Of a stretch of DNA of 64,000 bases, positions 469-61,550 are shown piece after piece. The position numbers were made by a program, and so were the translations under genes. The notes beneath the pieces were generated by a model. The model did not search any database and had not been told where the DNA came from. It saw nothing but the letters and a program-made list of their open reading frames with translations. Position 1 is the first letter of the stretch, and every line of letters starts with the position of its first letter. Origin of the DNA: an uncultured Chlamydiae bacterium (lineage in GTDB: Bacteria > Chlamydiota > Chlamydiia > Chlamydiales > JAJFMA01); contig CAVQMM010000001.1 in NCBI GenBank assembly GCA_963713615.1, positions 1,312,001 through 1,376,000 on the forward strand, written 5' to 3'.

Positions 469-530
469 AAAGGACCAAAAGGACATAAAGGACGTAGGAA
501 ATAAACCCTACAAGTCATTTATGTCCTTTT
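469..530. repeat. 9-nt-period GGAC/GTCC inverted microrepeat array (continues at 3578-3590 beyond the inserted MITE)
   Basis: aaaggacca aaaggacat aaaggacgt ... tttatgtcc tttt|tttt ggtccttt. Confidence 0.75.
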
Positions 531-1118
531 GAGGTAATTGCAGAAGTCCGATTTTCCGAATTCAATTTCCTGAAAGTCGGATGCCGGTGAAGAGAGAGCC
601 ATTCCCTTCCCAGGCCCGAAGGGTCGATAATGCAACAGGCCATGGCATCGCCATGGTATATGCCAAAACGGTTTTAGCAGCCTGTAGGGCTGCCATAAAG
701 CGCATGCATAAATGGTGTTTGTAAACTGGCGTCTTGTAGCAGTCCTTCAGACTGCGAAATCCCTTCCTGGCATATACCATGGCGATGCCACATAGGCCTC
801 AACCTAACAGGTCTTTTGAGCTTATATCTCAATGACTTAGGACTTCACAATCGTATCTCGGCGCGCAGCGCTTTGGAGTGCGGTCGCTTGCGACCGCTTT
901 TCGTTCCTTGGGACGGCAATGCTAAACGGCATTGTATGGATTCGTCGAAGGCTGCATGTACTAACTATTTTACCCTTAGGGAATTATAGTAATGCCGTTG
1001 CACACGACCGTCGCAAGGAACCCAAAGCGGTCGCAAGGTAAGCGTCAATTGAAGCCACCTTTTTCGTAATTCCGCGAGGTTCTAAGTTTTCTCCATGACC
1101 CTAACCATGGAGATACTA

Positions 1119-1676
1119 ATGGATTTCAAAAGGAAGCGTTCTGAGTGGGCTCGACGCATAGACCAATGGATGGCGAGCGGTCAGAGTGGCCGCAGGTGGT
1201 GCCTAGAGAACAATATAAGCTACCAGCAGCTCTTGTACTGGTACCAACGCTTTAAAGTTAGCCCGCCCGACCACATTTCCTCGACGGGTTGGATAGACAT
1301 TACCCTGCCCGAGCTCAAGCTTTCGCTTGATCAGAAGAGCGTCTATCTAACCCTAAAGTCTGCGAGCAAAACTCTGAGGTCGTCATATCAGAAAAACAAG
1401 GGTGTCTTTCTCTATCAAGAGCCGATCGATATGCGAAAGGGATTTGAGTGCTTGAGCAATCTTGTTGACAGTTCGTTCTCGGGCGAATTTACCTGCGGGG
1501 CCTACTTCGTTTTTTTAAATCGTCGTAGAAATCTAGTGAAGGTCTTTTACTGGGATGGTAATGGTCATGCCGTCTGGTACAAGCGACTTGAAAAAGGAAG
1601 TTTTCGCAATGGAAGCATTCCAGATTCCGCTATCGATCGTCGAGAATTTCTAATGTTGTTGGAGAGTAGTCATTGA
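1119..1676 (+). CDS. IS66 accessory protein, TnpA-TnpB fusion
   Basis: N-terminal W...SGQS...WC.....S...L.YW (TnpA-like HTH) in frame with DMRKGF..L...FVF.NRRR..VK..YWDG.G...WYKRLEKG.F (IS66 TnpB); GGAG before ATG 1119. Confidence 0.85.
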   Translation: MDFKRKRSEWARRIDQWMASGQSGRRWCLENNISYQQLLYWYQRFKVSPPDHISSTGWIDITLPELKLSLDQKSVYLTLKSASKTLRSSYQKNKGVFLYQEPIDMRKGFECLSNLVDSSFSGEFTCGAYFVFLNRRRNLVKVFYWDGNGHAVWYKRLEKGSFRNGSIPDSAIDRREFLMLLESSH

Positions 1677-1720
1677 GCCTAAAATCCTAAAAACAATGTG
1701 CATTTTATTAGATAAAATAC

Positions 1721-1749
1721 TTGATAATAGAGGGGGTCTGTGATATGAT
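1721..1749 (+). promoter_or_regulatory. sigma70/sigma66-like promoter for tnpC (same sequence at 37829-37857)
   Basis: TTGATA-17 nt-TATGAT ending 9 nt before the tnpC ATG; no obvious Shine-Dalgarno. Confidence 0.55.
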
Positions 1750-58162: not shown

Positions 58163-58176
58163 GGTCCTCAAAAAAG

Positions 58177-60828
58177 TTAGATTGAGCACCCCTTCTCCAG
58201 GCGTGCTACAAGAATTTCCAAAGCTGGAATGGCTTCGGTAATCATCTGCCTAAAGGTCTTTTGATTTTCTGGCGGGACATCCGGTATCCCACGTGACCTC
58301 CTCAAGGATGCCCCATACGCCTTTTCAATTTCGGTTTCCGGCATTGGAAACTCTGCATAATGATGCCTGATGCCAAGATTAACGTTTCTCAAGGCTTTCG
58401 CATCAGGCTCGTCTAGCATGCCTAAAATCTCTTGAAAGGTCTGGAGCTTGTGCCGCGCATCCACCTTGCCTAACCCCTCGCTATAGCACATTGCTTGATA
58501 GATTAGCTCTGCGATCTTATCTAGTTGCCCTATATTGATGTCGTGCCAAAATCTGACATTCTCTCTTTTTTCATAATCGGCTACGCCCAAACCCAAGTCT
58601 AATGTATGTAAAAGATGGCATGCATCGATAAGGCAGTCATACACATCCGGCTGCCGTCCCCGCTGCGTAGGTAGCTTCGCTAGAATTGTCTCTACAAGTA
58701 CTGCTAAAGTAGGATTGCACCAATCCGAACTGGGTAAAGTTGGAGGCCTCTTCTCTTGAAGTACCACAACCAGAGCCTTAAGCCGTTCCAACTCTTCCTT
58801 TTTAAATGGATTCAGTCTCTCGTCAAGAAGCTCTTGCATAAGGCAGATATAGTCATCGACAGTTCTTGTTATCATGCCATTAAGATCGAAGTCCTTGGGC
58901 TTGCTCTCCCATAATTTTCTCAGATCTACAAACCGTGGAAAGTTCAAATGCCTGTTTGCATGGTACACTAAAAAACGCACCCAAAATAATGCCAAATGGT
59001 AATCATTGGAAAGCTTGGAGAGCTTAGGCGTTACCTCAAACTCAGCTTTTAATTTGTTCAAATTATGCTCAAACGAATAATCACGATTCTTGAGGATATA
59101 TTTGAAAGCATAATGCTGCTCCATGGCGAGTGCCATATTTCGATAGCAATTCTGTAAAGCTAAAGCGAGCTTATCACCATTCTCATCCCGCAAGGCTTCT
59201 GCAATCATCTCTATACCTAACGTTGCCAACTCCAGCTGACATCCAATCTCACACAAGGAATGGTGAGCAGCCGTCTTAAGCCGGAAAGGCAGAAGATCTA
59301 ACTCGTTCTTATTCTTCTCGACTAAATCTTCCGCAAGATAATGCAAGCGAGAACTCCAGGTGCGTGCAATATTCGCTCCATCCTGCAAAAGGTCATCAAG
59401 CGATGGAATTTCGTTTGTTTCTATCACTCGAATAGAACTGTCCTCATAAATCAGTTCCATCTCAGGAAAATCCGCTTCTTTGGCAGTTTCTATTAAGTGA
59501 TACCATCCAATAAGATCATGGGAGGTATATGTAGCTATGCTGAATAATCTAACATGAGCAGGATTGACTTTGTCATGAATACCGCTCAAAAACTTTATGA
59601 TGGGTGGCAACATATCAGAAAATAGTCTGAGATCATCCGGCAATAGACGTTGTGTAAGTTCCTGCTTTAATTTCTGGTTGGCCTTTTTTTCACCAACCAA
59701 TCCGATGTTTTTTACAAAATTATCAGTAAACTGAATCATAGTCTTCAAGGCAGCATCCAGCCTTTGGCAGTCCTGAAATAATATGACCAATAGTCCAAAA
59801 GGAATGGAACCTTGCCTTACCAAACGAAGGTCACTTCGAATACTTTCAACACCAGTTCGAATACCTCGATATTTTTTCTGTAGAGAAGCTAGCGTAAGAC
59901 TTAAACCCGGTACTGCACTTTTTGAAATTTTCTTTTTTATTGACTTAGCAAAAGGAGAAAAGGATTCCGAAGCGTACTTTTCGCAATTTTTTAATATCTG
60001 AGGAATTAAATCACATTGGTGATACAAAAAACGTAAGTTTGCATGCTTACATTGTTCAAAGGTAGCTAACTTCTTCCAACCGGAAATGGGAACCTTCTTA
60101 AGAAGAGAACAAGCATCCATCAACTCCGTGAATTGAGTGATCTCTTCTGGCGCTATATCACCCCTTCGAGATAGTAGAAGGTTGGTCCTTTTATTATTCC
60201 ATGTAAAAGGGACCTCGACACCTTTATCCTTATTTAATTCACAATCCAACAAAAGTTCTGGTGTAATCTCGTCGTAATCCAAAAGCAAGTAATTTCCAAG
60301 GTCGCCACGCTGTAAAAGCCATTCAAAACAGGGTTTCCAACACGCTTCAGTTGTACTGAAGATTTTTTGAATTGGTACGTCATGAATCCGAAACCCTTGG
60401 AGCAAAAGACGTTTAAACCTATCCCTTTTCTCCGCGTCATCAAAACGCTTATCTAACATTGCTAGAAGTGGTTCATAATGTTTGCTATTATCATCATAAT
60501 CAACTGAAAGAGGCGTCTCAAAAAATTCATCAACCGAAAGGCCTTCAAAATTATTAGTAAGATATGCATATAACCACATGCGCAAACTAAACTCATGCGA
60601 ACAGGAAAACTCAAATTGTAAAATTTCCGATAACAATAGTTTACACGTTTTCTCCTGAATCGATGTAAGCTCCACATCTGTGATTTGTAAAGCGAGAATC
60701 TCATTTTTTCCATGTGCTGACTGCAGGAAGCTCTTCATCAAGCCGATCATCGCCTGACTTTCCCTATTGTGCAAAGAATCCGCGAAAGCATTCTTATGAA
60801 CAGCATCCAAATTCACTACAAACCTCAA
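58177..60828 (-). CDS. large hypothetical helical protein (full-length member of a local paralog trio)
   Basis: 883-codon AT-rich ORF; blocks shared with both neighbours. Confidence 0.8.
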   Translation of the reverse strand: MRFVVNLDAVHKNAFADSLHNRESQAMIGLMKSFLQSAHGKNEILALQITDVELTSIQEKTCKLLLSEILQFEFSCSHEFSLRMWLYAYLTNNFEGLSVDEFFETPLSVDYDDNSKHYEPLLAMLDKRFDDAEKRDRFKRLLLQGFRIHDVPIQKIFSTTEACWKPCFEWLLQRGDLGNYLLLDYDEITPELLLDCELNKDKGVEVPFTWNNKRTNLLLSRRGDIAPEEITQFTELMDACSLLKKVPISGWKKLATFEQCKHANLRFLYHQCDLIPQILKNCEKYASESFSPFAKSIKKKISKSAVPGLSLTLASLQKKYRGIRTGVESIRSDLRLVRQGSIPFGLLVILFQDCQRLDAALKTMIQFTDNFVKNIGLVGEKKANQKLKQELTQRLLPDDLRLFSDMLPPIIKFLSGIHDKVNPAHVRLFSIATYTSHDLIGWYHLIETAKEADFPEMELIYEDSSIRVIETNEIPSLDDLLQDGANIARTWSSRLHYLAEDLVEKNKNELDLLPFRLKTAAHHSLCEIGCQLELATLGIEMIAEALRDENGDKLALALQNCYRNMALAMEQHYAFKYILKNRDYSFEHNLNKLKAEFEVTPKLSKLSNDYHLALFWVRFLVYHANRHLNFPRFVDLRKLWESKPKDFDLNGMITRTVDDYICLMQELLDERLNPFKKEELERLKALVVVLQEKRPPTLPSSDWCNPTLAVLVETILAKLPTQRGRQPDVYDCLIDACHLLHTLDLGLGVADYEKRENVRFWHDINIGQLDKIAELIYQAMCYSEGLGKVDARHKLQTFQEILGMLDEPDAKALRNVNLGIRHHYAEFPMPETEIEKAYGASLRRSRGIPDVPPENQKTFRQMITEAIPALEILVARLEKGCSI

Positions 60829-61070
60829 AATAGATGTTGAAAAAAAATCTAATTGACGGGGATTCTATATGCAACATTATTTTTAGTCTACAAATTCCTA
60901 TATCAAATAATTCAAGTAGATATAGGCAAAGACATTGAAGAGGATTCAGGAATGATGATTGTGAGAACTTAGGTTGATGTGTAGCTTCACGCGTGTTATT
61001 CGTTGATAGTTAATTTCTTATGTTCGTTTGAATAGAAATTATTTCTGCCCCAAGGCTATGCTGACGAATT

Positions 61071-61479
61071 GAGGTAATTACAGAAGTCCTCTGAACTTTT
61101 GTAGGTAAGTGTCAATGCCTTACACATCATCGAATAACACGCGCGTAGCGCTCTGGAGCCCCAACCGACTGCGTCGCCAATATCCGAAAGTAACAAGGCT
61201 TCCTATGTGGCGCAGTCATTCCATGACTGCAAACAATCCATTGCAATTGTGGAGACGTGCAAAACAAACGTCCCATGGGATGCAAACGGAATCTGTTTCA
61301 ACCGTTCTCGCAATCATGGAATGCATAGTGTTGCACATATCTTTTTCTTGACTCACAATCGTATCTCGGCGCGCAGCGCTTTGGAACTCCAAAGTCTCCA
61401 AAGCGCTGCGCGCCGATTAACGCTTGTGAGGGCTTAGGTCGATGGTGTGTGTAGCACGCGAGACTTCTGCAATTACCTC
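61071..61479. mobile_element. GAGGTAATT-MITE copy R8 with unrelated cargo
   Basis: gaggtaattacagaagtc...gacttctgcaattacctc; aatt on both sides; contains hairpin F and collapsed cassette-C arms. Confidence 0.8.
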
Positions 61480-61550
61480 AATTCGTCCATAACCCAAAGC
61501 CATGCGACTGCTCGCCACAAAGTGCTACCTGAATGGAACTCCGACCATGG

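Follow-up and report, generated by a model that had tools for sequence, protein, structure and literature searches.

Nested intergenic repeats in the window and in the genome

The window analysed here is a stretch of 64,000 nucleotides from the genome of an uncultured Chlamydiae bacterium (NCBI GenBank assembly GCA_963713615.1, contig C1:1312001-1376000), in which eight repeat elements, designated as R1–R8 in positional order, lie between genes. [quoted passage not shown] Up to six repeat layers were found rather than four, stacked in the order GGAC array, IS1182/IS5-like MITE, E/D palindrome, cassette C, GGAG repetitive extragenic palindrome (REP), and insertion sequence (IS) IS66 or IS1634. 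Each of three unrelated elements of the cut-and-paste type is found in one specific repeat, at a fixed position, and the stacks were likely built by successive bursts of target-specific transposition, in which the outer two elements carried the hairpin of the next one as fixed cargo. Modules are labelled A, B and B2 for the MITE arms, E for the arm of palindrome D, R for the GGAG REP and G for a 160-bp MITE. The full six-layer state is found in R1:

468..530, continuing at 3578-3590: layer 0, left part of a two-armed 9-nt GGAC/GTCC array
531..3577, + strand: layer 1, shell of the IS1182/IS5-like MITE in the full six-layer state, with a 4-nt duplication (TTTT)
603..790, right arm resuming at 3403: layer 2, E/D doublet with a hairpin at 614-623 and 11-mers at 643-653 and 780-790
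791..3402, + strand: layer 3, cassette C with 17-bp terminal inverted repeats (TIRs) and an exact 11-bp duplication (780-790 / 3403-3413)
848..3380: layer 4, GGAG REP doublet; left core at 875-897, right REP split by IS66 and resuming at 3333-3352
1038..3332, + strand: layer 5, IS66 of 2295 bp with an 8-bp duplication (1030-1037 / 3333-3340)
1095..1676, + strand: accessory gene of IS66, a single frame of 193 aa that combines TnpA and TnpB
1759..3303, + strand: IS66 transposase TnpC, 514 aa (NF033517, 356 bits; cut-off 180)

The genome (3.97 Mb in three contigs, 99.1% complete) contains 147 clusters with a MITE arm, which total 124 kb and lie in intergenic gaps. A strict pattern recovered 303 MITE ends and 110 paired elements, most commonly of ~430 bp (31/110) or ~750 bp (25/110). 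The paired elements have different flanks, and the modules are not randomly placed; thus neither segmental duplication nor independent scattering, the two outcomes held to speak against the nesting, was borne out. Tandem arrays of 4-9 MITE+D units with short array spacers occur at C1:476526-478848, 1173286-1175195, 2273505-2280484 and 2600817-2603043. The other loci of this kind in the window are as follows:

8476..8965: R2, MITE with E/D and a B-type arm at both ends, a hybrid without duplication; GGAC array at 8457-8475
14473..14559: R3, layer 0, two-armed GGAC/GTCC array
14560..15111: R3, MITE with duplication AATT and C at 14741-15049, flanked by a direct duplication of 11 bp; the inner A arm and most of D have been lost
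32160..~32772: R4, MITE with C (32343-32651) and no D, right terminus clipped; 11-mers inverted, array at 32770-32830
36953..39869: R5, MITE with C (37076-39687) and no D, duplication TTAT; 11-mers inverted
37146..39440, + strand: R5, second IS66 copy with an 8-bp duplication, oriented relative to C opposite to that of R1
37203-37790 and 37867-39411: IS66 genes of R5
41323..41850: R6, GGAC array holding a MITE (41378-41811, duplication TTTA) with E/D, between fumC and an ATP-synthase subunit C/K gene
50954..50984, + strand: single-armed GGAC run of four units without MITE
57191..57302, + strand: R7, left MITE arm and start of E, truncated
61071..61479: R8, identical in termini but from another MITE subfamily, duplication AATT; holds a remnant of the GGAG REP along with other palindromes

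R8 had been counted among the MITEs of one set; it shares their termini but belongs to a different subfamily with different cargo. The run starting near 50953, which had been taken for an empty array, is a single arm only, whereas two-armed empty arrays are common elsewhere in the genome.

Fixed insertion sites of the mobile layers

Cassette C is a 309-bp non-coding MITE of the IS231 type (IS4 family) whose copies lie almost exclusively in the hairpins of E/D. We examined 90 pairs of C ends, including those of a related subfamily; the flanking 11 bp are directly repeated without mismatch in 70 and with 1-2 mismatches in four, while seven pairs are exactly inverted, one is inverted with one mismatch and eight match neither arrangement well. 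The target 11-mer is symmetric ([TG]GGC-N3-GCC[AC]) and lies in the hairpin of D, and copy-specific variants of it are duplicated faithfully on both sides of C. Such an 11-mer within an E/D cluster abuts 165 of the 172 exact C termini. C and D had been assigned to one tier, an assignment that we rejected because C is inserted in the hairpin of D; C is thus one tier deeper and is itself composed of two layers. When C was removed in silico from the 74 hosts that are then full-length, 36 proved to have carried none, 37 one and one two copies; the left or right hairpin, in either orientation, is used in 14, 12, 6 and 5 of the 74 hosts, scattered over the host tree. On this tree, the presence of C requires 15 changes, at least five of which are forced by well-supported branches. 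The copies of C differ by 0.36% (n = 30) as against 7.2% for the hosts (n = 74), and the distance between two C copies is uncorrelated with that between their hosts (r = -0.05, 434 pairs).

The 11-mers around C in R4 and R5, which lack D, are inverted and not direct. The sequence-only reading had regarded MITE+C as an intermediate state; given the inverted 11-mers, we rejected it as a precursor, and the form was likely derived by recombination between a C in the left hairpin and a C in the right hairpin, with loss of D. At 56937-57153, upstream of R7 and accompanied by palindromic repeats, and at 51003-51102 and 61149-61355, the window has additional subfamilies with CATAGG ends, which adjoin a different hairpin family (F). 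Another CATAGG-ended subfamily has the GGAG REP itself as its insertion site and duplicates 10 bp there.

The IS66 element is present in 18 copies of 2295 bp with 99.7-100% identity. Thirteen of them lie in C, four in free GGAG doublets and one in another palindrome family (H), so that 17 of 18 break the GGAG REP, and a perfect 8-bp duplication flanks 17 of the 18. Both REPs of C are used in both orientations, and one C holds two copies. The insertion of IS66 in a hairpin of cassette C, as proposed from the letters, holds for both window copies (1038-3332 and 37146-39440). The IS66 proteins exceed the cut-offs of NF033517, NF033819 and NF047593, with TnpA and TnpB in one frame of 193-195 aa. 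An IS1634 element likewise lies in the GGAG REP in 8/8 copies, with a 6-bp duplication in six of the seven copies that keep both ends, and an IS110 element lies in the hairpin of E other than that used by C in 9/9 copies, one of which is in a free array beside the Y1 HUH gene L003 described below. The repeat is broken at one point (type 1 of Tobes and Pareja) in 17/18, 8/8 and 9/9 copies of IS66, IS1634 and IS110, respectively.

Control elements in the same genome behave differently. A second IS1634 element lies in REP-type repeats in 2/9 copies; the GGAG REP contains one of 11 left ends of a third IS66 and none of a second IS66. The G MITE has 130 of its 154 matches outside the composites and shows 8-bp duplications at unrelated sites in 107 of 128 full copies. 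These other ISs and the G MITE inserted almost at random. A window copy of the G MITE (17139-17298) has GGCCTT ends; larger elements with similar ends contain a 444-aa frame (C1:1074649) for which NCBIfam gave no match. Palindromic family H (window 58052-58189, 43 matches) hosts the sole IS66 copy outside GGAG repeats and resembles the flanks of an IS200 gene at C1:1042747.

The outer MITE enters the array in a fixed phase. At 211 of the 303 ends, GGAC is found outside the terminus at a distance of exactly 5 nt, or GTCC at one of exactly 4 nt, compared with 137 of 20000 random positions (0.7% background), and the two offsets are one cut geometry viewed from two strands. Pairs with simple-insertion geometry show a 4-nt duplication in 31/45 cases. 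Mirror-type flanks, which occur in 43 pairs, are more alike than random pairings when members of tandem arrays are dropped (p ~0.004 for 21 pairs and ~0.003 for eight pairs), suggesting that the array centre was lost locally. Such a loss could have arisen by two insertions followed by recombination, or by stem-loop replacement as in IS1272. The accessible text on IS1272 of the IS1182 family describes stem-loop-replacing transposition into inverted-repeat targets that may leave no duplication (PMC5678879), which would fit the mirror-flanked copies; the target of our MITE differs in being a 9-nt periodic array that is cut in a fixed phase and often shows an ordinary 4-nt duplication. The copies also include hybrids with an identical arm type at both ends.

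The array itself is a periodic repeat, as had been noted from the letters. In the genome, GGAC/GTCC dyads number 540 at period 9 and 37-127 at periods 5-8 and 10-15, and triples number 211 and 0-7, respectively; the 9-nt period thus greatly exceeds chance. No MITE end lies within 40 nt at 70 of the 120 loci with at least two GGAC dyads; some of these 70 are remote parts of filled arrays, and many are complete two-armed empty arrays. The genes that flank R6 are adjacent in 5/5 relatives fetched, which indicates that the GGAC array itself is an insertion at this site. The site of R1 carries an empty two-armed array of a different subtype in G003 and no array in G001. A different family of 9-nt-period repeats forms short runs at 4610-4656 and 17043-17115 of the window.

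The two remaining layers have constant junctions. MITE-arm clusters contain 277 of 307 E matches and 135 of 146 D matches, and the E/D junctions with the MITE shell are constant in the copies of the main subfamily that were read, suggesting a one-time capture. The link between layers 1 and 2 thus looks like cargo capture, later copied, rather than repeated targeting. Likewise, the REP doublet sits at constant junctions in C; the core of C is near-identical within the composites, while free doublets are mostly 75-90% identical, as if one REP variant had been captured and then amplified, and this doublet, too, looks like a one-time capture copied as cargo. The GGAG REP has 472 matches, 295 of them outside MITE clusters. 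The proposal that each family is the target of the next therefore applies to the MITE in the array, C in the D hairpin and IS66 in the REP, and not to E/D in the MITE or the REP in C. Minor MITE subfamilies carry other cargo, namely a GGAG REP doublet, the palindrome of another Y1 gene or the mixture seen in R8, and one 84-bp shell is empty.

Repeat-associated genes and candidate partner transposases

Genes that can be linked to the repeats by adjacency lie elsewhere in the genome; together with IS1634 and IS110, they extend the chain beyond the members that the sequence-only reading had named. Its suggested search for transposases, REP-associated tyrosine transposases (RAYTs) and Y1 genes had a divided result: a RAYT gene (L006) and a Y1 gene (L003) lie beside their own repeats, but candidate transposases for the two MITEs (IS1182-like and IS4) were found only in other genomes.

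L003 encodes a 150-aa low-copy Y1 HUH protein with a Y---Q--HH motif, which fits the subclass 1.2 signature in the accessible part of PMC6006769; it scores 57.6 with NF033573 (cut-off 55) and does not reach NF047646. Six E/D doublets and two partial units follow it within ~5 kb, and this array of six accounts for most free E/D copies. Three further Y1 HUH genes, L002 (C1:3872945-3873400), L004 and L005, each have their own flanking repeat, and one MITE copy (C1:3816692) carries the L002 palindrome. In G001, a free E-type REP (L250:949-987), with neither MITE nor array, is located just after a glyoxalase gene, in the gap that R3 occupies here. L006 scores 83.7 bits with NF047646 (cut-off 80) and has tandem GGAG REP doublets on both sides; it is the putative enzyme for cleavage or strand transfer of this REP, to judge from adjacency. 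The described RAYT/TnpA-REP systems, including REP doublets forming hairpins (REPINs) and bacterial interspersed mosaic elements (BIMEs), have a low-copy Y1 HUH gene flanked by its palindromes and hundreds of dispersed copies in inverted doublets (PMC6006769 and PMC8266576, as far as accessible), and the gene with its own palindromes and many inverted doublets is similar here. The differences are that the tetranucleotide foot is GGAG and not GT[AG]G, GGAG being absent from the accessible text of PMC6006769, and that a large share of the REP copies has been multiplied as cargo of a DDE MITE.

Both four-helix-bundle genes of the genome pass the TIGR02436 and TIGR04258 cut-offs of NCBIfam (23S rRNA intervening-sequence protein family), and both (2/2) are directly bracketed by GGAC arrays; they differ from the intervening-sequence proteins in lying outside rRNA genes. 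This family is related to Avd, an accessory protein of diversity-generating retroelements. TIGR04258 genes were found in 9 of the 61 genomes searched, and at least one exact period-9 dyad lies near 10 of 11 four-helix-bundle loci in eight other genomes, the 11th having a degenerate array. A single-protein search at E 1e-20, run without a positive control, found no such gene in 41 genomes around G409. These proteins and the arrays would thus be tied together by association. Two GxxExxY genes (TIGR04256; C1:1855144 and C1:1921739) are bracketed by other 9-mer repeats in a parallel arrangement.

Autonomous elements with the termini of the outer MITE were found on six metagenome contigs (L082, L097, L099, L108, L116 and L125) with DUF772 + DDE_Tnp_1 transposases, four of the six having been profile-scanned; both ends of L082 (1447 bp, 377 aa) and L108 (1509 bp, 365 aa) are MITE termini. 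These candidate partner transposases (365-377 aa) exceed the Pfam cut-offs for DUF772 and DDE_Tnp_1, but their best NCBIfam match, NF033551 (IS1182), reaches 78-105 bits, far below the cut-off of 270, and IS5 models also remain below theirs. In our genome, none of the genes found with PF01609, PF13751 and PF05598 or of the single-copy DDE genes inspected has MITE termini, and a weak match near C1:3530787 was rejected since it sits in an unrelated 620-aa frame. With a profile of the layer-1 transposase (A1), no more than fragments were recovered from 61 genomes, four of which contained them, and G002, G006, G408 and G409 gave no match. Among the matches listed, MITE ends are in GGAC phase in 16/23 cases in one chlamydial genome, 7/13 in a Parachlamydiales genome and 0/4 in an Armatimonadia genome.

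The C TIR was found by a pattern search of 401 genomes in six others. A C-type TIR in G329 precedes an IS4 transposase gene (L206; NF033592, 164.6 bits, cut-off 115) whose translation contains, as read by eye, a Y(2)R(3)E(6)K motif; the right end of this element is degenerate. MITEs with the same TIR in G329 and G149 are flanked by 11-bp duplications in GGGG-N3-CCCC-like palindromes, and those in G329 have a different 9-mer repeat as cargo. IS231A, for comparison, has the target consensus GGG(N)5CCC. C termini fit the end pattern CAT-------AA--TAA and the 10-12-bp duplication that De Palmenaer et al. (2008; PMC2266710, Table 1) give for the IS231 subgroup within the IS4 family, a group that also has target-site specificity in common with C. 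The latter differs in being a non-coding carrier of a REP doublet, in having nearly all its sites in the hairpins of another MITE and in the lack of a detected transposase in its host.

Proposed assembly of the stacks

The following succession would account for these features. GGAC arrays of 9-nt period, tied to four-helix-bundle genes, would have spread through gene gaps, and the IS1182/IS5-like MITE would have entered them with a 4-nt staggered cut in a fixed phase, sometimes replacing the centre of a two-armed array. One MITE lineage may have acquired an E/D doublet from among the repeats that belong to the Y1 HUH gene and multiplied the symmetric 11-mer as it spread. An IS231-type (IS4) MITE that intrinsically prefers 11-mers of this form would then have entered the hairpins many times, bringing with it the GGAG REP doublet of the RAYT and thereby multiplying the target of IS66 and IS1634, while IS110 would target the other hairpin of E. 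Recombination between copies likely gave the hybrids, D-less forms and tandem arrays. Each newcomer may have profited from a safe harbour, being inserted harmlessly inside existing repeat DNA. Divergence falls inward from the outer MITE (7%) through C (0.4%) to IS66 (<=0.3%), in line with this order. The MITE layers are likely frozen now, since neither of their transposases was found in the assembly, whereas IS66, IS1634 and IS110 would still be mobile. Rfam gave 0 matches in the window at gathering thresholds, and a promoter scan of 440-1200 found none, with two terminator-like hairpins (0.9 expected) in the same interval; we accordingly claim no regulatory role.

Several observations weigh against this succession. 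The host tree is weakly resolved, with 12 of 67 inner branches starred and 39 open. The transposase of layer 1 was not found in the genome (tblastn best E 1.2; profile A1; NF033551 with only weak matches on other genes), nor was the IS4 partner of C (tblastn best E 0.61; nothing over the NF033592 cut-off), though C is very young. The target duplication of 4-5 nt is present in only 48 of the 110 paired MITEs and is lacking in 35 of the 43 with mirror-type flanks; simple insertion therefore cannot explain all copies. The autonomous IS1182-like elements sit outside GGAC arrays, and among the matches listed GGAC phase is seen at no more than 8 of the 125 metagenome MITE ends that could be scored, so that a transposase with GGAC preference was not identified; for the same count, we rejected the view that GGAC is targeted throughout the MITE family, the phase being lineage-specific. 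No MITE shell in which the main arms are joined without E/D was found, which would fit capture in either direction between layers 1 and 2. A related IS66 in G006 (67% DNA identity) has unrelated flanks at 7/7 copies examined; REP targeting is thus not shared by relatives of IS66, and we rejected it as a general trait of the family. No pair of empty and filled alleles was found among conspecific strains, a search that is evidence neither way because the unique flanks were barely covered. In addition, the hybrids show that copies recombine, which could move C between hosts.

This last point leads to the most serious alternative, in which C was inserted once or a few times and then passed on among the MITE copies through gene conversion or homologous recombination, not through repeated transposition. 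Recombinants do exist, as seen from MITEs with the same arm at both ends, the seven exactly inverted pairs of C flanks and the tandem MITE arrays, and in one host the two arms share a variant 11-mer, suggesting conversion of one arm by the other. Even so, we regard this explanation as unlikely, given that C occurs in four placements with variant 11-mers duplicated on both sides, that C copies are as distant in near-identical hosts (0.32%) as in hosts more than 12% apart (0.37%), that the C at C1:1654684 is located outside E/D and has an imperfect duplication, and that in G329 and G149 elements sharing its TIR have duplicated 11 bp in different palindromes. It is still less probable that the nest was assembled once and copied whole by the outer MITE, only the outermost step being repeated. 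The two dominant length classes and the constant junctions of E/D with the shell and of the REP with C agree with such copying, which does hold for these two cargo layers; for C and IS66 it is already largely refuted, by the ~20 times lower divergence of C than of its hosts and by the presence of IS66 in both REPs of C, in both orientations, in four free doublets and in both REPs of one C.

We also give little credence, though marginally more than to copying of the whole nest, to BIME-like mosaics built wholly by the resident Y1 HUH enzymes (the RAYT and the subclass 1.2 protein), with REP arms as the terminal repeats. Both cognate Y1 genes are intact in the genome, where the two DDE partners were not found, and to the eye the inner arm of C looks like an E-type REP; the direct duplications of 4-5 bp and 11 bp and the termini common to autonomous DDE elements are marks of DDE transposition. 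An assembly artefact or segmental duplication can be set aside with near certainty. The genome is repeat-rich, and none of the run contigs checked spans a whole composite with both unique flanks, but the 110 pairs have different flanks and site-specific duplications, and junctions were also recovered in run contigs: the end-to-end MITE joint of the tandem arrays, across a 34-nt array spacer, is present in those of X1, X2 and X9 (runs from three studies, of which one may be the source sample), REP-IS66 junctions in those of X2 and an IS1634-REP junction in those of X1.

Successive target-specific transposition thus explains the stacks best, and individual steps of this kind are already known, including REP targeting by ISs. 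The list of REP-targeting ISs includes IS1397 and ISKpn1 (IS3), IS621, ISPa11, ISPpu9 and ISPpu10 (IS110), ISPsy8 (IS3) and ISRm22 (IS4) (Tobes and Pareja 2006, PMC1525189, accessible text). As in our case, all or nearly all copies of these elements break the REP at one point and duplicate few bases, and IS110 and IS4 are families already on that list. The accessible text does not mention IS66 and names no IS1634 element; moreover, the REPs there are free in the chromosome, while here they are mostly cargo of a MITE that targets the cargo of another. REP dimers within other palindromes, and mosaic intergenic regions of several repeat families, are described for Neisseria (Di Nocera et al. 2013, PMC3733652, as far as accessible), where REP doublets are likewise regularly enclosed by another palindromic repeat; that account has two layers without assigned duplications or enzymes, as opposed to six ordered layers with a duplication signature for each targeting step. 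PMC3184786 mentions neither nesting nor chlamydiae in its accessible text. The literature searched, which excluded ISfinder and most subscription journals, contained no multi-step chain of this kind, no REP-targeting IS66 or IS1634 and no paper on the pairing of four-helix-bundle genes with 9-mer arrays.

In the composites, the building of mosaic intergenic repeats can be dated and counted, with a duplication signature for each targeting step and negative controls in the same genome. They indicate that REPs can rise in copy number as the cargo of DDE MITEs and not through RAYTs alone, which bears on how REPs spread. They also provide three candidate target-specific transposases, namely IS66 and IS1634 elements that choose one hairpin unlike their relatives and an IS110 element with a REP target, and comparison of specific with unspecific relatives could locate the determinants of target choice. 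The 9-nt GGAC arrays, so far unexplained, are linked to four-helix-bundle genes in this lineage. MITE shells of both kinds in other lineages (L014 in G006, L210 and L221 in G329, L027/L056/L058 and L034) have other cargo, i.e., CACAGAG-type 9-mer arrays, a GTAG-type REP or a D-like palindrome; as L014, L027, L034, L210 and L221 carry and target different repeats, the relay may be reusable. Whether hairpin-capturing MITEs that amplify and recruit the next element form a general rule in the ecology of bacterial genomes is a tentative thought, which we find possible though rather doubtful; it would involve a succession over five enzyme families (a four-helix-bundle system, IS1182-like, Y1/RAYT, IS4 and IS66/IS1634/IS110), including REP-seeking IS66 and IS1634 and a phase-reading IS1182-like lineage, with an undescribed four-helix-bundle mobile system as its base.

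Other repeated sequences in the window lie in or near coding frames. A 303-aa frame at 31039-31950 has internal repeats (31246-31684) and no Pfam match. Repeated DNA at 57314-57970 and 59140-59663 falls in neighbouring frames of 251 and 883 aa, also without Pfam match, the former of which runs into the truncated R7. Finally, multi-copy DNA is present in or near coding frames at 7961-8352 and 55203-55479, and the first of these segments has matches of 72-77% in G001 and G003.

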